Positions 2,421 through 24,476 of a DNA stretch of 32,000 bases are shown in pieces (position 1 is the stretch's first letter; every line of letters begins with the position of its first letter). The notes under the pieces were generated by a model, which saw only the letters and a list, made by a program, of their open reading frames with translations, had not been told where the DNA came from and searched no databases. A program made the translations under genes and the position numbers. The DNA is from Methanocaldococcus jannaschii DSM 2661 (GTDB lineage: Archaea > AGJL01 > Methanococci > Methanococcales > Methanocaldococcaceae): positions 1,464,118 to 1,496,117 of the forward strand of contig NC_000909.1 in assembly GCF_000091665.1 (NCBI RefSeq), read 5' to 3'.

Positions 2421-3116
2421 GTGATAACCATGAACTACGACCCAAAAATAATAGAAAGAGGAAAGCTATATTATAGAAACAATTTAGTCAAATACTGCAT
2501 AAAATACAAAAATTTTTTATTTGGGGAGGTTGTTGGCTCAGATACTTATAAAGTTAAAGTTGATTTAGATAATAACTATTTTGGATTATGCACCTGCCAA
2601 TACAAATACAACTGCAAACATGCCTATGCTTTAATTGAAGCTTATGAAAACAACAACTATGTGGATGCAGAAGAAATATTTAAAGAAATAGAAGATAAAC
2701 CTAAAGAAGAGATTTTAAAAATTTTAAAAAATTTGGTTGTTAAATATTATCTATGGGATGAGTTTTTAAATACAGACAGTTTATTAAATAAAGCCATTGG
2801 CTTAATAAAACTAATTCCATTAGAGAGAAAAAATATTTATACATTTAAATCATTTTTAAGAAATCAGTTTGTTAAAAATGCTGATGATGAGGAGTTGATA
2901 AAGGTTATTGATGAGATGATAAGGGCAGATTTGGATTTTAATAATTCTGATATTATTGAGGCATTAACCATAATATTAGACGAAATATTTAGAAGAGAAA
3001 ATAAAGAAGCAATAAAAAAGCTTATAAATTTATATAGAAAGCATAAAAAAGAATTATGGATTGTTGGAGATTATTTAATAGAGTATTATGATAATTACTT
3101 TGATTATGAGGATTAG
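2421..3116 (+). CDS. SWIM zinc-finger domain protein
   Basis: CxC-x(n)-CxH SWIM signature (GLCTCQYKYNCKHAYAL) followed by a helical C-terminal region. The ATG at 2430 is a plausible true start (track start is GTG). Confidence 0.65.
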   Translation: MITMNYDPKIIERGKLYYRNNLVKYCIKYKNFLFGEVVGSDTYKVKVDLDNNYFGLCTCQYKYNCKHAYALIEAYENNNYVDAEEIFKEIEDKPKEEILKILKNLVVKYYLWDEFLNTDSLLNKAIGLIKLIPLERKNIYTFKSFLRNQFVKNADDEELIKVIDEMIRADLDFNNSDIIEALTIILDEIFRRENKEAIKKLINLYRKHKKELWIVGDYLIEYYDNYFDYED

Positions 3117-4228
3117 AGATAGAGGTGTTGTGGAGCTTCTCTTCTATTGCCTAATATTTTCTTCAACGCCCATTCTAAATCTTCCTTGCTAACGTAATCC
3201 CTGTCTTCCAATATTGCTCTATGTAACGCTGGCTTTAGGAATTTCTCTTTGATATCTCTACCGCTAAATCCTTTTGTTTTCTCTACAAACTCCTTCAAGT
3301 TAGCTTTAACTGGAAGTGGCATTTTTTTAGCATAAAGCTCCATAATCTTCAATCTCTCCTCATCATTTGGTAACTTAAACTCAATCTCTTCCTCAAACCT
3401 ACTTCTAATTGCTGGGTCTAACATCGCTGGGTTGTTTGTCGCTGCTATAGTTACAACTCCCTCATTTTCTTTAATTCCATCTAATTCAGTTAATAGTGCA
3501 TTAACTACTTCAGAAACATCTCCTCTCAATGATTGATATTCCCTACTTAATCCTATAGCGTCCAATTCATCAATAAACACTATACATGGAGCACTCTCAG
3601 ATGCTCTTTGATACAACTCCCTAATCATTTTAGAAGCATCTCCAACATGCTCTCCAATAAGCTCTGGAGCTTTCACCAATATAAATGAGGAGTTTGTCTC
3701 TGTAGCTAAAGCTCTTGCCATCAATGTCTTTCCAGTTCCTGGAGGACCATAGAACAACACATTCTTTGGAGCCCATTCTCCAAAGAGCTTTGGATTCTCT
3801 AAATACTTCATAATAATTCTACACTTCTTCTTTGCCTCTTCCTGCCCAATAATCTCGCTGAACTTAGCTTTTTTAAACTGTGTTCTAAGAACTTTTTTAG
3901 GAGTTTGTAATTTAAAGACAGTCTCGCTTGTAATCATTCCTCCCTCTTTTGGATAAGTTGAAATAACCTTGAAAGCATAATCTGGAAGGATTGAGTTATC
4001 AAATAAGTAATCTCCCTCTTTAACAATCTCGCCAATCCACTGGTCTCTCGCATAGATGTTGAATAATATAGGATCATCAGTAGAAACTTTAACGTTCTCG
4101 CTACTAACCCTGATTGGGAATCCCGCAGGCTCTAATACAACGTACTTTAATGATGGTAATGTATCATCGTAAGTTTTAATCTTTGAAAAAGATTTTATTT
4201 TTATTGGATTAAATCCAATTTTACTCAT
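3113..4228 (-). CDS. AAA+ ATPase (single AAA module, proteasome-ATPase/FtsH-like) with N-terminal beta-rich domain
   Basis: Walker A GPPGTGKT, Walker B CIVFIDELD, second region of homology ATNNPAMLDPAIRSRF. The track start is TTG at 4234. The ATG at 4228 has a GGTGAT SD 5 nt upstream. Confidence 0.9.
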   Translation of the reverse strand: MSKIGFNPIKIKSFSKIKTYDDTLPSLKYVVLEPAGFPIRVSSENVKVSTDDPILFNIYARDQWIGEIVKEGDYLFDNSILPDYAFKVISTYPKEGGMITSETVFKLQTPKKVLRTQFKKAKFSEIIGQEEAKKKCRIIMKYLENPKLFGEWAPKNVLFYGPPGTGKTLMARALATETNSSFILVKAPELIGEHVGDASKMIRELYQRASESAPCIVFIDELDAIGLSREYQSLRGDVSEVVNALLTELDGIKENEGVVTIAATNNPAMLDPAIRSRFEEEIEFKLPNDEERLKIMELYAKKMPLPVKANLKEFVEKTKGFSGRDIKEKFLKPALHRAILEDRDYVSKEDLEWALKKILGNRREAPQHLYL

Positions 4229-4255
4229 AGTCAATCACCAGTTTAAGTGATGATA

Positions 4256-4350
4256 AATAGGACTTTCGCAGTTTATGTATAAATTTGGAGCTTAGACACT
4301 CAAAGAGTGTCAATATTCAATAAAAATATTTTTCCTGCGAAAGTCCTATT
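4256..4350. repeat. 95-bp inverted-repeat element, copy 1 (MITE-like or structured RNA)
   Basis: Perfect 16-bp terminal inverted repeats AATAGGACTTTCGCAG (4256-4271) and CTGCGAAAGTCCTATT (4335-4350). Central 6-bp hairpin GACACT-caaag-AGTGTC (4295-4311). A second copy lies at 10929-11023. Confidence 0.85.
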
Positions 4351-4421: not shown

Positions 4422-5258
4422 ATGACATCGATGGATATGTTTTTCTTCTTATTCATATTTCTATTATTTATTTATCCAGAGATGATGATGAGATATAGGA
4501 TAATGAAAAGGTTGAGATGTATAAGGGAGATTGAAAGACAGAGGGGAACAAGAGTTATAGCTATGATACATAGACAAGAAGCATTAACATTCTTAGGGAT
4601 ACCAATATATAAATTTATCACTATTGAAGATAGTGAAGAGATTTTGAGGGCTATTAGATTAACACCAGAAGATATGCCTATTGATTTAATCATTCATACT
4701 CCTGGAGGTTTAGCTTTAGCGAGTGAGCAGATAGCCTTAGCTTTAAAGGAACATAAGGCAAAAACAACAGTTATAATTCCACATTATGCGATGAGTGGAG
4801 GAAGTTTAATTGCCTTAGCTGCAGATGAAATAATTATGGATAAAAACGCTGTAATGGGGCCAGTAGATCCACAGATTGGGCAGTATCCTGCTGCATCTAT
4901 CTTAGAGGCATACTATAGGAAGGGAGAAAAAGTAAGTGATGAGACATTAATATTGGTTGATATATCTAAAAAAGCTATTAAACAGATGGAAGAATTTGTT
5001 TATGAGTTGTTGAAAGATAAATATGGAGATGAAAAAGCTAAAGAAATCGCAAAAAAACTAACTTCAGGAACATGGACACATGATTACCCTTTAACAGTTA
5101 GTAAATTAAAAGAATTAGGTATTGAAGTTAATACAAATGTTCCAAGAAAGGTTTATGAGTTATTAGAGCTTTATCCACAACCAATGGGAGCCAAACCTTC
5201 AGTTTATTACATCCCTGTCCCATACAGCAAAAAAGAAAGTGAAAAAAATGCAAAATAA
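4422..5258 (+). CDS. Membrane-anchored ClpP-fold serine protease (SDH/S49-like family)
   Basis: N-terminal TM segment ([13 protein letters not shown]), then the ClpP/crotonase-fold block [15 protein letters not shown] ... [19 protein letters not shown]. The track start is GTG at 4380. The ATG at 4422 follows a GGGGGA SD, and ATG 4410 is an alternative. Confidence 0.7.
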
Positions 5259-10461: not shown

Positions 10462-10860
10462 TTATTCCTCAATATTCTCTAAATATTCTTTAACAACATC
10501 CTCGAATTCTAATTCTTCTACCCATTTTTTCATATTGTTGCACCACTCTTCCATAGTCTTTTTTATAATCTTTTTCGTTTCTTCAAATGGAATTGCCTCA
10601 TAAACATAATAATACCCTCCATCTTTTATATTTACCTGCTTTCTCTTTACTAAACCAGCATTCATTAAATTTTGAACTGCTCTCTGAACTGTACTTCTAT
10701 CCCTATTAATTCTCTCAGCAATGTCGTTTATTTTTGAAGGGCCGTTTTTTAAAATATCAAAATAAACTTTGACATCAGAAACTTTTATACCAAAAACACA
10801 TGCCATTAAACTATCAAACGTCCAGGTTGTGCATGGAGTTTTTAATAAAAGTTTACTCAT
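10462..10860 (-). CDS. Winged helix-turn-helix transcriptional regulator (TrmB/MarR-like)
   Basis: HTH segment INDIAERINRDRSTVQRAVQNLMNAGLVKRK followed by a beta-wing (GGYYYVYEA). AGGTGAT SD and a TTTAAATATA box upstream. Confidence 0.7.
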   Translation of the reverse strand: MSKLLLKTPCTTWTFDSLMACVFGIKVSDVKVYFDILKNGPSKINDIAERINRDRSTVQRAVQNLMNAGLVKRKQVNIKDGGYYYVYEAIPFEETKKIIKKTMEEWCNNMKKWVEELEFEDVVKEYLENIEE

Positions 10861-10928: not shown

Positions 10929-11023
10929 AATAGGACTTTCGCAGTCTATATTATTAAATTTGGAAAATAGATGCCTTTAGGTATCATTGTTCAATAAAAA
11001 TTTATTCCTGCGAAAGTCCTATT
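10929..11023. repeat. 95-bp inverted-repeat element, copy 2
   Basis: Same 16-bp TIRs (10929-10944 and 11008-11023), same length and orientation as copy 1. Shared internal blocks AAATTTGGA and TTCAATAAAAAT. The central hairpin GATGCC-ttta-GGTATC (10970-10985) has a different sequence but the same pairing. Confidence 0.85.
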
Positions 11024-12124
11024 TTAATACTTTCCATAAGTAAGAATTCTCACAATTCTTTCTCCACTTTTCCCATTTCCAAATGGATTTTTCCAATTTC
11101 TCTTTTTATTGAGCATTATTTCAACCGCTTTAATTAGCTTTTCTTTGTTATCACCAACTAATATATTAGCTCCAACTTCAACTGTTTCTGGCCTCTCAGT
11201 ATTGTCTCTCAAAGTTATACATGGGACTTTTAAGATACATGCCTCTTCTTGAACTCCTCCACTATCTGTTAAAATTAGCTCGGCATTTTTTTCCAGCATT
11301 AGAAATTCCAAATAGCCAACTGGCTCAATAATTTTTATTTTTTTATTGCTTTTTAGTTTATCAAACAAATTAAACTCTTTCAATCTTTTTTTAGTTCGTG
11401 GATGGATTGAGAAAATAATAGCTTTATCGTATATCTCAATTATCTCAAATATTCCCTCTACAATATTTTTTAATCTTTCTTTATTATCAACATTTTCAGC
11501 CCTATGTAGGGTTAATAAAAAATAATCATCATCAATAACAACACTATTAAAAAAAGCTCTAACGTTTTCATTTTTTTCAGCAATTTTTAAATTTTGTAGG
11601 GTGGCATCAACAATTGTATTTCCCACAACAAAAATCTTATTTTCTTCAATGCCCTCTCTTAATAAATTATTCTTAGCTATTTCAGTTGGAGCAAAGAGAT
11701 AACTGCTTATATGGTCAGTCAAAACTCTATTTATCTCCTCTGGCATGTTTCTATCAAAACTTCTTAATCCTGCTTCAACATGAGCTACATCTATCTTTAA
11801 TTTTGAGGCTACTAAAGCTCCTGCTAAAACAGTGTTTGTATCTCCCTGAACTACAACAACATCCGGTTTTTCTTTTAAAAGAACTTTTTCTATCTCTATT
11901 AACATCTTTCCTGTCTGCTCTCCATGAGTTCCAGAGCCAATATTAAGATTATACTTTGGATTTGGTAGATTTAACTCCTCAAAGAATATTTTATCCATAT
12001 TCTCAGAATAATGCTGATTAGTGTGGATGATATGCCAGTCTATGTTAGTTTTTTCTAAAGCTCTAATTATAGGAGAAAGTTTTATAATTTCAGGTCTTGT
12101 CCCTAAGATAATAGAGAGTTTCAT
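11024..12124 (-). CDS. wecB: UDP-N-acetylglucosamine 2-epimerase (non-hydrolysing)
   Basis: Family blocks ILGTRPEIIKLSP, VVVQGDTNT, HVEAGLRSFD, HRAENVD and TDSGGVQEEA. Confidence 0.9.
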   Translation of the reverse strand: MKLSIILGTRPEIIKLSPIIRALEKTNIDWHIIHTNQHYSENMDKIFFEELNLPNPKYNLNIGSGTHGEQTGKMLIEIEKVLLKEKPDVVVVQGDTNTVLAGALVASKLKIDVAHVEAGLRSFDRNMPEEINRVLTDHISSYLFAPTEIAKNNLLREGIEENKIFVVGNTIVDATLQNLKIAEKNENVRAFFNSVVIDDDYFLLTLHRAENVDNKERLKNIVEGIFEIIEIYDKAIIFSIHPRTKKRLKEFNLFDKLKSNKKIKIIEPVGYLEFLMLEKNAELILTDSGGVQEEACILKVPCITLRDNTERPETVEVGANILVGDNKEKLIKAVEIMLNKKRNWKNPFGNGKSGERIVRILTYGKY

Positions 12125-19484: not shown

Positions 19485-19634
19485 AATATTATATCTATAT
19501 ATTTAAATATATAGATTAATGTTCTTACAAAAACAAATAATAAAGTTTTTAAACCCAAATAAACCAAATGAACATAAAAATTAAATTATAATCTATCAGA
19601 TTCTCTAATAAATATTCATTGACTTGGTGTTATT

Positions 19635-22600
19635 ATGATACCGATGATATATAAAGAGATGTGTCCTAACTGTAACGGAGAGATAACGAGTGAAAGGTTA
19701 GCTATAGGAGTTTGTGAAAAATGTTTAAAAGAAGAAAATGTTTTTGAAAAACTAAAATTATGTGAAAAACTTAGAGAAGAGAAAACTTTGAAAAATTTAA
19801 AAGATTATTGTATTATTTGGAATGAATTTAAAGAATTTGAAGAATTTGTAAAAGATTTAGGATTTGAACTTTTAAGTATTCAAAAGATGTGGGCTAAAAG
19901 GGTTTTAAAGAACAAGAGTTTTTCAATCGTAGTACCAACTGGAGTTGGAAAGAGCTTTTTTGGAATACTTATGAGCCTATTCTTAGCTAAGAAAGGGAAA
20001 AGATGTTATATAATTCTACCAACAACACTACTGGTTAAGCAAACTTATGAAAAAATATCCTCCTTAACAGAAAAAAATAACTTAAATATAAGAGTAGTTG
20101 CATATCATTCAGAACTCTCAACAAAGGAAAAGAAAGAGGTAAAGGAGAGGATTGAAAACAACGATTATGATGTTTTGATAACAACATCCAACTATCTAAC
20201 AAAAAACATGCCAAAATGCAAATTTGACTTTGTATTTGTTGATGATGTCGATGCATTGTTAAAAGCATCTAAAAACATTGACAGAACTTTAAAGTTGTTA
20301 GGATTTGATGAAGAGATAATAAATGAGGCATATAAAATCATCTACCTAATAAAGATTGGAAAGATAGAGGATGCAATGAAAAAGAGAGAAATTTTAAAGA
20401 AAAAAATATCTAAAATAAAGCATGGCTGTTTAATAATTGCTTCTGCAACTGGAAAGAGTTATGGGGATAGAGTTAAGCTTTACAGAGAGCTTTTAGACTT
20501 TGAAATTGGATTTGGAATGAATAAGCTTAGGGATGTTGTTGATATCTACGACGAGGAATTTAGCAAAGAGAAGATTTTGGAGTATATAAAATTATTTGGT
20601 TCTGGCGGAATTGTGTTCGTTTCAATTGACTACGGAGTTGAGAAAGCCCAAGAGATTGAAAAATATCTATTAGAAAATAATATCAAGGCAAAATTAATCC
20701 ATTCAAAGGATAAGAAGGGATTTGATGATTTCAGAGAGGGAAAGATTGATGTTTTGATTGGAGTGGCATCATACTATGGTGTCTTGGTTAGAGGTTTAGA
20801 CATGCCGGAAAGGGTTAGATATGCTATCTTTTATGGCATTCCGAAGTTTAAAATTAGATTAAAGGAGTATATAAACAGCTTAAAGGAGAAGGGAGAGTTA
20901 AAAGAAGATATTAACATAGAAGGAAAGACTGAGGAGGAAATTAGGCAGATAATAACTGAGAAATTAAAGATAAAGAACTTCTCTCTAAGGAAGGAGGATG
21001 ATGAATATCTATTGTTAATTCCAGATGTAAAAACCTATATCCAAGCATCTGGAAGAACTTCAAGGATGACAGAGTTTGGTTTGACTAAAGGGGCAAGTAT
21101 TGTATTGGTGGATGAGAAAGAGATTTTTGAAGCCCTCAAAAAGTATATGCTCTTTATGTATGAGAGTGAATTTAAAAGAATAGATGAGGTAAACTTAGAG
21201 GAGCTAATTAAAAAGATTGATGAAGATAGGGAGAAAATAAAAGTTGGAAGAGCCAAAGGAAAAGTCCCAGATTTGCTAAAATCTGTCTTAATGGTTGTAG
21301 AAAGCCCTAATAAGGCAAGAACTATAGCAAACTTCTTTGGAAAGCCCTCTGTTAGAAAGATAAACAACAGAAATGTCTATGAGGTTTGTATTGGAGATTT
21401 AAACTTGATTATAACTGCGAGTGGAGGGCATGTATTTGATTTGGTTACAAAAGAGGGTTTCTATGGGGTTAAAATAGAAAATAACTTGTATATTCCAATA
21501 TATACATCAATTAAAAAAGTGAATGGAGAGCAATTTACCGACCAAAAGGATTTGGAGGAGTTGATAAAGCAGTTAATGGAGAAAGGAGAGAGAGTAAATG
21601 CAATGGATGCTAAGGAGAACATAGAGATTATTAGGGAGATAGCCGATGAGGTTGATGCAATATTCATAGCAACCGATATCGATACAGAGGGAGAGAAGAT
21701 AGGATATGACATAGCCATAAATGCCCTCCCATTCAATAGAAATATCTACAGAGTAGGATTTAATGAGATTACAAAGAGGGCAATATTAAAGGCAGTTGAA
21801 TCATTTAAAAAAGGAGAAGAACTTAGCTTAGATGAAAATAAAGTTAAAGGACAGGTAGTTAGAAGGATAGAAGATAGATGGATTGGATTTAGGTTGAGTC
21901 AAAAGCTTTGGGAGGTATTTAATAAAAACTACCTCTCAGCTGGTAGAGTTCAAACACCAGTGTTAGGATGGATTATTGAGAGATACAATGAACATAAAAT
22001 AAAAGTCCCTTATCTATCTCTAAAATTGGAAAATGACATATATATTGGAAAGATTTGGGAAGATGAGTTTGATAAGGATGAGGTTGAAGTTGAAGTTAAA
22101 GTTTATGAGAAGGAGATTCCTCCATTACCTCCATTCACAACAGACACATTGTTAGAGGAAGCTACAAAGAGATTTGGATTAAGCACCGATGAAATAATGT
22201 CTATAGCTCAAGAGCTTTTTGAGTTAGGGTTATGTTTAACTCCAGATACCTATGTTGTGTTAGGGGATGGAAGAATTGAAACAATTGAAGACATTGTTAA
22301 TGCTAAGGAAAGAAATGTTTTATCATTAGATTTAGATAATTTATCAATAAAAATAGATACAGCCATTAAATTCTGGAAATTGAGATATAATGGAAACCTA
22401 AGTAAAATTACTCTTTCGAACAATTATGAGCTAAAGGCAACTCCAGACCATTGCTTATTGGTTTTAAGAGACAATCAACTAAAATGGATTCCTGCAAAAG
22501 ATATTAAGGAAAATGATTACATTGCAATGCCATTTAACTATAAAGTTGAAAGAAAGCCAATCTCCCTATTAAATCTTCTGAAATATTTGGATATTACTGA

Positions 22601-24476
22601 TGTATTAATAGAGTTTGATGAAAACTCCACAATATTTGAAAAAATAGCTGAATATATTAGAAACAATATTAAAACAAGCACAAAATACAAATATCTAAGA
22701 AATAGAAGAGTCCCGTTAAAATATCTAATTGAGTGGAATTTTGATTTGGATGAGATTGAGAAAGAGGCAAAATACATATATAAAAGCGTTGCAGGAACTA
22801 AAAAAATTCCATTGTTTAAGTTAGATGAGAGGTTTTGGTATTTTGCAGGTTTGGTATTGGGAGATGGAAGCATTCAAGATAGCAAAATTAGAATTGCACA
22901 AACACCATTAAAGGATGTTAAAAGCATATTGGATGAGACATTCCCATTCTTACACAATTGGATTTCTGGTAACCAAGTGATTATTTCAAATCCAATTATT
23001 GCTGAAATTTTGGAAAAATTAGGAATGAGAAATGGAAAATTAAACGGAATTATCTTCTCTCTCCCAGAAAGTTATATAAATGCATTAATTGCTGGATATT
23101 TTGATACAGATGGATGCTTCTCCCTACTTTATGATAAAAAGGCAAAAAAACATAATTTAAGAATGGTTTTAACATCAAAAAGAAGAGATGTTTTAGAAAA
23201 GATAGGCATTTATCTAAACTCAATTGGTATTCTAAATACTTTACACAAAAGTAGAGAAGTTTATTCCTTAATAATAAGCAATAAGTCCTTAGAAACCTTT
23301 AAGGAAAAGATTGCGAAATATTTAAAGATTAGAAAAGAGGCATTTATAAATGGTTATAAAACATATAAGAAGGAGCATGAAGAAAGATTTGAATGTGATT
23401 TATTGCCAGTAAAAGAGGTATTTAAGAAATTAACATTTGAAAAGGGAAGAAAGGAAATTCTAAAAGATAGCAAAATACACATTGAAAATTGGTATAAAGA
23501 GAAAACAAATAACATCCCAAGAGAAAAATTAAAGACAGTGCTAAGATATGCAAATAATTCAGAACATAAAGAGTTTTTAGAAAAGATTGTTAATGGAGAT
23601 ATATCCTTTGTTAGAGTTAAAAAAGTAGAAAATATTCCTTATGATGGATATGTCTATGATTTAAGCATTAAACATAACCAAAACTTTATATCAAATGGAG
23701 TTATCTCACACAATTGCACATATCACAGAACCTCTTCAACAAGAGTTTCATTGGATGGGATGAGAGTAGCAAGAGAGTATCTAAAACTAAACAATTTAGA
23801 GGATTATTTAAAAAATAGAGAATACTTTATGGAAGGAGCTCATGAATGTATAAGACCAACAAAACCAATGAATACCGATGAGTTAATAGAGTTTTTAAAG
23901 GAAAATAACATAAAGCTAACTAAAAATCATATAAAAGTTTATGATTTGATATTTAGAAGATTTATAGCCTCTCAGATGAAAGAGGCTGTTGTTGAATATG
24001 AAGAGATTTATATAAAAGATTTAGATGAGAAGGTTGAGGGATATGTTGATATAAAGTTTGATGGTTGGAGTAGAATTTATAATCTAAAATTAAAAAAGCT
24101 TCCAAGGATTGAAAAGAGCAGTTTAAAAGTTTTAGACAAAAAACTTAGAAAGATTCCAAAAGTTCCATTGTATGATGAGGGAGAGGTTGTTAAGTTGATG
24201 AAAGAGAGGGGTATTGGAAGACCTTCAACCTATGCCCAAATTATTAAAAAGCTGTTAGATAGGGGATACGTAGTTAAAAGTAAAGATAAGAATAAGTTAA
24301 TCCCAACAAAGCTGGGAATTGAAGTCTATAATTATTTGATAAACAATTATCCTCACTTAATATCTGAAGAGAGAACAAGGGAGTTGGAGGAGATTATGGA
24401 TAAGATTGAAAATGGAGAAGTTGATTACATAGAAGTGCTAAAAGCTTTACATGAGGAGATTTTGAGTATAAGATAG
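19635..24476 (+). CDS. rgy: Reverse gyrase (helicase-like domain fused to type IA topoisomerase), interrupted by an intein
   Basis: N-terminal zinc finger CPNCNG...CEKC, Walker A PTGVGKS, DDVD box, Toprim (VESPNKA ... DIDTEGEKI), and topo IA active-site block TYHRTSST after the intein. 1613 aa including a 494-aa intein. Confidence 0.97.
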   Translation: MIPMIYKEMCPNCNGEITSERLAIGVCEKCLKEENVFEKLKLCEKLREEKTLKNLKDYCIIWNEFKEFEEFVKDLGFELLSIQKMWAKRVLKNKSFSIVVPTGVGKSFFGILMSLFLAKKGKRCYIILPTTLLVKQTYEKISSLTEKNNLNIRVVAYHSELSTKEKKEVKERIENNDYDVLITTSNYLTKNMPKCKFDFVFVDDVDALLKASKNIDRTLKLLGFDEEIINEAYKIIYLIKIGKIEDAMKKREILKKKISKIKHGCLIIASATGKSYGDRVKLYRELLDFEIGFGMNKLRDVVDIYDEEFSKEKILEYIKLFGSGGIVFVSIDYGVEKAQEIEKYLLENNIKAKLIHSKDKKGFDDFREGKIDVLIGVASYYGVLVRGLDMPERVRYAIFYGIPKFKIRLKEYINSLKEKGELKEDINIEGKTEEEIRQIITEKLKIKNFSLRKEDDEYLLLIPDVKTYIQASGRTSRMTEFGLTKGASIVLVDEKEIFEALKKYMLFMYESEFKRIDEVNLEELIKKIDEDREKIKVGRAKGKVPDLLKSVLMVVESPNKARTIANFFGKPSVRKINNRNVYEVCIGDLNLIITASGGHVFDLVTKEGFYGVKIENNLYIPIYTSIKKVNGEQFTDQKDLEELIKQLMEKGERVNAMDAKENIEIIREIADEVDAIFIATDIDTEGEKIGYDIAINALPFNRNIYRVGFNEITKRAILKAVESFKKGEELSLDENKVKGQVVRRIEDRWIGFRLSQKLWEVFNKNYLSAGRVQTPVLGWIIERYNEHKIKVPYLSLKLENDIYIGKIWEDEFDKDEVEVEVKVYEKEIPPLPPFTTDTLLEEATKRFGLSTDEIMSIAQELFELGLCLTPDTYVVLGDGRIETIEDIVNAKERNVLSLDLDNLSIKIDTAIKFWKLRYNGNLSKITLSNNYELKATPDHCLLVLRDNQLKWIPAKDIKENDYIAMPFNYKVERKPISLLNLLKYLDITDVLIEFDENSTIFEKIAEYIRNNIKTSTKYKYLRNRRVPLKYLIEWNFDLDEIEKEAKYIYKSVAGTKKIPLFKLDERFWYFAGLVLGDGSIQDSKIRIAQTPLKDVKSILDETFPFLHNWISGNQVIISNPIIAEILEKLGMRNGKLNGIIFSLPESYINALIAGYFDTDGCFSLLYDKKAKKHNLRMVLTSKRRDVLEKIGIYLNSIGILNTLHKSREVYSLIISNKSLETFKEKIAKYLKIRKEAFINGYKTYKKEHEERFECDLLPVKEVFKKLTFEKGRKEILKDSKIHIENWYKEKTNNIPREKLKTVLRYANNSEHKEFLEKIVNGDISFVRVKKVENIPYDGYVYDLSIKHNQNFISNGVISHNCTYHRTSSTRVSLDGMRVAREYLKLNNLEDYLKNREYFMEGAHECIRPTKPMNTDELIEFLKENNIKLTKNHIKVYDLIFRRFIASQMKEAVVEYEEIYIKDLDEKVEGYVDIKFDGWSRIYNLKLKKLPRIEKSSLKVLDKKLRKIPKVPLYDEGEVVKLMKERGIGRPSTYAQIIKKLLDRGYVVKSKDKNKLIPTKLGIEVYNYLINNYPHLISEERTRELEEIMDKIENGEVDYIEVLKALHEEILSIR
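22233..23714 (+). mobile_element. Intein (494 aa) with LAGLIDADG homing-endonuclease domain, inside rgy
   Basis: Starts with Cys (CLTPDTYVVLGDG, block A). Block B is ATPDHCLLV. LAGLIDADG motifs are YFAGLVLGDGSI and LIAGYFDTDGCF. Ends in VISHN, followed by a +1 Cys. Removing it restores ELGL-CTYHRTSST. Confidence 0.95.

Follow-up and report, generated by a model that had tools for sequence, protein, structure and literature searches.

Two 95-bp units in a 32,000-nucleotide stretch of Methanocaldococcus jannaschii DSM 2661 DNA (the whole of which we call the window), at positions 4256-4350 (copy 1) and 10929-11023 (copy 2), are probably copies of a non-coding, non-autonomous palindromic repeat of Methanocaldococcus, of the MJRE class and most likely of its group MJRE2, which would be mobile as DNA through recognition of its fold-back shape. 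Two odd G+C-rich intergenic inverted repeats are thereby explained as copies of a known repeat class, and annotators are cautioned against labelling such repeats as RNA genes or regulatory sites. Below, G000 denotes the M. jannaschii genome, coordinates with the prefix C1 lie on it, and the other G numbers denote its relatives.

Two copies of one palindromic unit in the window

Reading the window sequence bore out the original prediction of two 95-bp units with perfect 16-bp inverted arms in the same orientation, which is that of the family consensus on the minus strand. In copy 1 the left arm, AATAGGACTTTCGCAG, occupies 4256-4271 and the right arm, its exact reverse complement, 4335-4350; in copy 2 the left arm, again AATAGGACTTTCGCAG, lies at 10929-10944 and its exact reverse complement at 11008-11023. 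Both copies contain the inner blocks AAATTTGGA and TTCAATAAAAAT, as had been noticed, and both carry a central hairpin. That of copy 1 (4295-4311) has a 7-bp stem, GACACTC/GAGTGTC, closed by the 3-nt loop AAA, and that of copy 2 (10970-10985) reads GATGCC-TTTA-GGTATC. The hairpins, their offsets of 39 and 41 nt and the one G-T pair were found where they had been placed; this pair, in copy 2, is G-T on the plus strand and an A-C mismatch on the minus strand. The arms are also G+C-rich relative to their surroundings, as first described (44% G+C, against 31% for the genome).

The arm is far from a chance pattern: AATAGGACTTTCGCAG with at most 3 mismatches matches the window four times, where 0.23 matches are expected, and none of 100 shuffles gave four. 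Either strand of either copy folds into a long hairpin, with z-scores of -5.4 to -7.6 relative to shuffles. Copy 1 is flanked by divergent genes, one for an AAA ATPase (3113-4234, minus strand) and one for an SDH/ClpP-like protease (about 4422-5258, plus strand). Copy 2 lies between two genes that are co-directional with it. The stop codon of the UDP-GlcNAc 2-epimerase gene (11024-12124, minus strand) adjoins its 5' end, and it sits 68 nt upstream of a gene for a TrmB-like regulator (10462-10860, minus strand).

A repeat family restricted to Methanocaldococcus

The original prediction had called for a genome-wide count of copies and a covariance model. Together these give about 50-55 copies in M. 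jannaschii and a family restricted to Methanocaldococcus. A pattern search found 51 arms in G000 at 2 or fewer mismatches and none with a reversed control pattern, and pairing these arms yielded 31 units; lengths run between 87 and 127 bp and are most often 94-96 bp. The larger figure comes from an iterated HMM search, in which 39 of the loci are full length and every one is chromosomal. The model scores about 70 bits on the better strand of a copy and about 30 on the other; each copy therefore has a polarity, and the palindrome is imperfect.

A covariance-model search detected the family in 11 of the 17 Methanocaldococcus genomes, and the copy number of a species lies between 0 and about 70. 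Five complete genomes hold many copies, two draft genomes gave about 18-20 (G011) and 9-12 (G012) strand-hits, and four genomes have 1-2 copies. None were found in the remaining six, four of which are 96-99% complete. The copy-rich genomes include G000, G001, G006, G013 and G014, and the copy-free ones G003, G004, G009 and G015. All 23 genomes from the sister family were negative in the same search. Viral contigs gave twenty single 15-mer matches, attributable to chance, and none of these is an element by the covariance model.

Base pairing is kept while the sequence changes

From two copies it had been proposed that the sequence changes while the pairing is kept. This holds family-wide, in the arms as well as in the central hairpin. 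We tested a structure of 16 terminal and 6 central pairs on an alignment of the 39 full-length G000 copies (alignment A2) and on a 36-copy G001 alignment, fitted to the model, in which three rows are opposite strands of the same loci. Standard pairs make up 92.6% of cells in G000 and 97.3% in G001. When the partners are slid against one another, pairing drops to 29-44% and 33-39%, respectively. Changes on both sides of a pair occur at 14 of the 22 pairs in G000 and at 17 of 22 in G001. Counted by cell, there are 76 such changes in G000, compared with 24.3±3.8 in shuffles, and 49 in G001, compared with 8.9±2.3; in neither genome did any of 500 shuffles reach the observed number.

The variants themselves are informative. 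Within the arms, GGAC/GTCC or GAAC/GTTC is combined with CGCAG/CTGCG or CACAG/CTGTG, and all four combinations are seen. The outer four pairs of the arms also co-vary (AATA, TACG, CACA, TACA, CATA and others), and the central stem chiefly alternates between GATGCC/GGCATC and GACACC/GGTGTC. Because pairing has been retained through this much sequence change, with two-sided changes at most G000 pairs, the family is not simply a dead repeat in decay, in agreement with the original prediction. A further candidate, a third, middle helix (TTGG/CCAA versus AAGG/CCTT; A2 columns 36-39 with 69-72), was rejected, as only 51% of its cells pair and shuffles do equally well. The compensatory-looking changes could also arise, in part or as an alternative, by template switching within the quasi-palindrome, a process that needs no selection.

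Occupied sites differ between sister species

A check of strains for presence and absence had been proposed at the outset; comparison of orthologous sites across sister species showed both window copies to be polymorphic. Copy 1 is missing at its orthologous site in G001, G006, G014 and G002, while the G013 site is rearranged; copy 2 is missing in G001, G006, G013, G014 and G002. Flanks at the compared sites are 85-95% identical. Turnover is equally plain across the family. Against G001, the 39 G000 copies comprise 23 with an empty site, 6 scored as filled and 10 others, 29 having resolvable flanks. Against G000, the 36 G001 copies comprise 13 with an empty site, 7 scored as filled and 16 others. 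True sharing with G001 is confined to 2-3 of the 29 resolvable G000 copies: among the six sites scored as filled, only two are orthologous, and the rest hold a different element or nothing. Other relatives contributed 11 more pairs of filled and empty sites.

The junctions of about 20 filled/empty pairs also allowed the proposed check for target-site duplications, and no duplication of fixed length was found. Subtracting the element length from the inserted length gives values between -2 and +2 bp, most often 0 or -1. Exact 0-bp junctions occur, for example, at C1:157705, upstream of a 16S rRNA gene, and at C1:1076106, and apparent 2-bp duplications (TG and CC) at C1:177395 and G001:116478. 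A weak and symmetric flank preference is seen: of 75 copies, 48 have T at -3 and 56 have A at +3. Sites thus differ between sister species: the element moves, into A+T-rich DNA, and does so without a fixed target duplication.

Some sites are occupied in unusual ways. The 16S rRNA genes of both rRNA operons are flanked by four copies in all (C1:157705-157798, 159683-159778, 638235-638330 and 640116-640209), the two that lie upstream of 16S rRNA genes are identical to each other, and G001 has empty sites in place of those at 157705, 640116 and 638235. G001 also holds, at the site of C1:573432, a member of a different palindromic family, which may mark a shared insertion hot spot, and at the site of C1:884324 it carries a copy of the same family in the opposite orientation. 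In addition, the site of window copy 1 has an element of another palindromic family about 50 bp away in G001 (locus L099). Such repeated occupation by several palindromic families looks like the use of insertion hot spots.

Mobile DNA, RNA gene or promoter

A conserved fold could be selected in DNA or in a transcript. Selection on a single transcript strand should leave more G·U pairs than A·C mismatches on it. We counted mismatches in the two helices of those G000 copies whose arm register is intact (35 of 39) and of 20 copies from sister genomes. On the consensus strand there are 25 G·T and 20 A·C, which are similar numbers, so neither strand is favoured. Moreover, three G000 copies lie inside long ORFs, at C1:953493, 1056871 and 1251126, where they add a net 96, 99 and 93 bp; each length is a multiple of three, and the reading frame is therefore kept. 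Copies within ORFs, the lack of strand asymmetry and the turnover of sites together favour mobile DNA over an RNA gene. The two functions first put forward for the conserved structure have fared differently: a substrate for a recombinase or transposase fits these data, and an RNA is at odds with the polymorphic sites, the symmetric wobbles and the in-frame copies.

The relation of the copies to neighbouring genes is less easily accounted for. Among copies between tandem genes, 33 are co-directional with the genes (15 in G000 and 18 in G001) and 11 are opposed (p = 0.0013). A recount from which spurious rRNA ORFs and copies common to both genomes were removed gives about 29-30 versus 8. Many copies, including window copy 2, start at the stop codon of the upstream gene or supply it, with recurrent gaps of 0, 1, -4 and -21.

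Both observations would suit a structured RNA, either an RNA gene or a cis-acting element that the host keeps for stability, processing or termination, as has been proposed for bacterial REP and ERIC sequences, and so would the strong covariation in two helices. We nevertheless regard this explanation as very unlikely. The copies are mostly without a counterpart at the orthologous site in relatives, several Methanocaldococcus species do without the family altogether, and the mismatch balance and the in-frame copies already described speak for DNA. Rfam gave zero matches at gathering level, with chance-level hits only at E <= 1. Nor is there a terminator signal, runs of at least 5 T being equally common on the two element strands (22 on the co-directional strand versus 18 on the other, of 75 copies).

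Alternatively, the repeat could be a mobile element that doubles as a portable promoter, in which a TATA-like octamer starts transcription near the edge of the element and selection for this produces the orientation bias. In keeping with this, 57 of 75 copies carry TTTATATA, with 1 mismatch or none, immediately interior to one arm. Copy 1 has a TTTATACA box about 21 nt in from its end towards the AAA ATPase gene, and the start codon of that gene is about 27 nt past the copy, which would be normal archaeal promoter geometry. However, the native promoters of this genome read GAAA-NN-TTTATATA, and GAAA is missing from this position on both strands of the element. The distance to the downstream start codon is also the same for co-directional and opposed copies. 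We therefore consider a promoter role improbable. The terminator and promoter explanations that we tested leave the orientation bias unexplained.

No matching transposase among the resident elements

The mobile DNA element favoured here has no coding capacity of its own, and we searched for an enzyme that might move it. M. jannaschii carries two 705-bp copies of an IS6-like insertion sequence, ISMja1 (named in PMC6807381), at C1:1435739-1436443 and C1:16755-17459, along with about eight derivatives that have lost internal sequence and measure about 360 bp; these are genuine MITE-like descendants of a resident element. The ends of ISMja1, GAGACTGTCAAGTTAA, are unlike the arms of the repeat, and those of an IS4/5-like element, also present in two copies in G000, are unrelated to them; both were rejected as partners. 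A Y1/HUH transposase was rejected as well, because PF01797 is absent from the copy-rich genomes G000, G001 and G014 and present only in G006, G013 and G016. TnpB-like genes are widespread, and their distribution does not track that of the repeat. A search for transposases of the IS110, IS630 and IS1595 groups found none. No long element bounded by the arms was found in G000 or G001. The one candidate, a 1.8-kb pair of solitary arms, encloses a CBS-domain gene and another whose Pfam match is weak and under the cut-off. These proved to be ordinary genes, surrounded by nested, degenerate copies of the repeat. Thus, no transposase with ends matching the repeat was found.

These results bear directly on whether the repeat is a classical MITE, that is, an internally deleted derivative of an insertion sequence encoding a DDE transposase, whose enzyme binds the double-stranded arms and moves the element by cut and paste. 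The label stands in part. The repeat is small and numerous, has perfect 16-bp terminal inverted repeats and encodes nothing; species differ in the sites it occupies, and its host genome holds both a MITE-producing insertion sequence and an IS4/5-like element. Yet it lacks a target duplication of fixed length, its arms differ from the ends of both resident elements, and neither an autonomous element with the same ends nor a transposase of the three groups above came to light. Furthermore, a decaying MITE would not be expected to show the same changes in its two arms at many positions and in every combination. An origin as a classical MITE is therefore unlikely.

How the repeat may move

The divergence among copies places further constraints on the element. 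Identity of the inner region between copies averages 0.67, with a median of 0.79 to the best paralogue, whereas two truly orthologous pairs from G000 and G001 reach 0.91-0.93. Given that identity is low and that most insertions postdate the split of G000 and G001, the diversity of the inner regions must mostly predate the present insertions. This in turn implies many divergent lineages, each still able to move. Because close donor copies are lacking, excision and reinsertion are suggested rather than copying; simple copy-and-paste fails to account for the missing close donors of young insertions. A few pairs of G001 copies, at 0.92-0.94 identity, do look like the products of recent copying. 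In resident copies about 95% of the arm pairing is intact, as it should be if the insertions are young and started out with whole stems.

As no mobilising protein was found, the mechanism of movement is something that we infer. The element may travel as DNA, with the mobilising enzyme recognising a fold-back shape that could be either a single-strand hairpin or a cruciform. New copies would then arise solely from copies whose arms still pair, and selection would act at the level of the element. If movement requires pairing, the covariation of arms and hairpin would be accounted for, even though the resident copies are mostly young and serve no function in the host. The mobilising enzyme would act in trans, and would be neither a Y1/HUH transposase nor the resident IS6-like or IS4/5-like transposases. 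The orientation bias hints at a link to transcription that this DNA-mobility model does not predict.

A more far-reaching idea is that MJRE-type elements form a distinct kind of mobile DNA, one that depends on hairpins, makes no target duplication, moves mainly by excision and reinsertion and uses an enzyme outside the known transposase families. In that case the enzyme might be a structure-specific nuclease or recombinase of the Methanocaldococcus host. We hold this to be a rather speculative proposal, with the odds against it. For the mobile repeat as such, the search for the enzyme is narrowed by the kept pairing, the lack of a fixed duplication and the fast turnover of sites despite dissimilar copies, and narrowed further by the gene-orientation bias and by the lack of a Y1 or matching DDE transposase.

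Relation to MJRE and other small palindromic repeats

Palindromic repeats of M. jannaschii, MJRE1-3, have been described before (Suyama, Lathe and Bork, FEBS Lett 2005; 579:5281, as cited in PMC2229807 and PMC2996958). The class to which the present repeat probably belongs is therefore already known, and its group is probably MJRE2; both assignments are made by description and not by sequence alignment. Compared in this way, the two agree in their host genome, in being interspersed palindromic repeats of about 100 bp that are mostly intergenic, and in the low identity between copies. Three MJRE2 elements reportedly lie within coding regions with the frame kept, and here, too, there are three such copies (those at C1:953493, 1056871 and 1251126). 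We found nothing in the MJRE description that contradicts the match. MJRE elements have, to our knowledge, been catalogued for twenty years without a mechanism of movement. Genetic tools now exist for M. jannaschii, so the question of movement is directly testable. What looks new in the present work is modest: the missing target duplication, the 3:1 orientation bias and the absence of close donors.

Other known systems resemble the repeat to varying degrees. Like the MITEs of archaea and bacteria, such as Sulfolobus SM1-4 and the Neisseria Correia elements, it is small and non-coding, with inverted ends, many copies, polymorphic sites and occasional in-frame or promoter-proximal insertions; those elements, however, have a fixed-length target duplication and ends in common with a resident insertion sequence, and the repeat has neither. 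The Rickettsia palindromic elements (RPE) and the coding palindromes of Wolbachia are likewise about 100 bp long, lie in frame within genes and have no known transposase (compare PMC2996958). They are unrelated in sequence and in host, theirs being bacterial endosymbionts. With REP/BIME elements and their RAYT enzymes, and with IS200/IS605-derived PATEs, the repeat appears to share a hairpin-based build, insertion that leaves no fixed target duplication and a dependence on secondary structure, which in the case of the repeat we infer. But each REP/RAYT unit or PATE carries a single short hairpin or a hairpin close to either end, and depends on a Y1/HUH enzyme. In the repeat the two ends pair together around a single central hairpin, and the copy-rich genomes G000, G001 and G014 have no Y1 gene.

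Sister families, composites and a further palindrome

M. jannaschii also contains sister families of the same build, with a terminal stem, A+T-rich arms and a central G+C hairpin, whose arms are different (TATAGTTTTTTGCAAAAC..., AGTCAATCATCAAA... and TAACCAATTATCAAAG...). Examples lie at C1:1073460-1073569, 1077970-1078076, 1119424-1119525 and 1248687-1248788. A crude inverted-repeat scan placed such elements in one cluster of 26, with mixed arm types, plus a few small groups. These sister families are probably the other MJRE groups.

Several copies occur in association with other repeats. The copies with arms of the CACAGG type (C1:398651, 1045872, 1555509 and 1584333) are all inserted at GGGTAT^CCAATAGGG, as is one at locus L088 of G011. 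This site, whose empty form is found at C1:459268, lies between the two G+C-rich hairpins of another short repeat, and the genome contains 21 instances of the motif GGGTATNCCAATAGGG. Either a composite has spread as a unit or this is a favoured site. Another composite, of about 213 bp at C1:852490-852702 (L225:191-403), consists of a family copy with a second, degenerate copy nested inside it.

Finally, a perfect 24-nt palindrome, ATCTATATATTTAAATATATAGAT, lies at 19493-19516 of the window, about 120 nt upstream of an ORF of 1613 aa (19635-24476), and could be a promoter or operator site.
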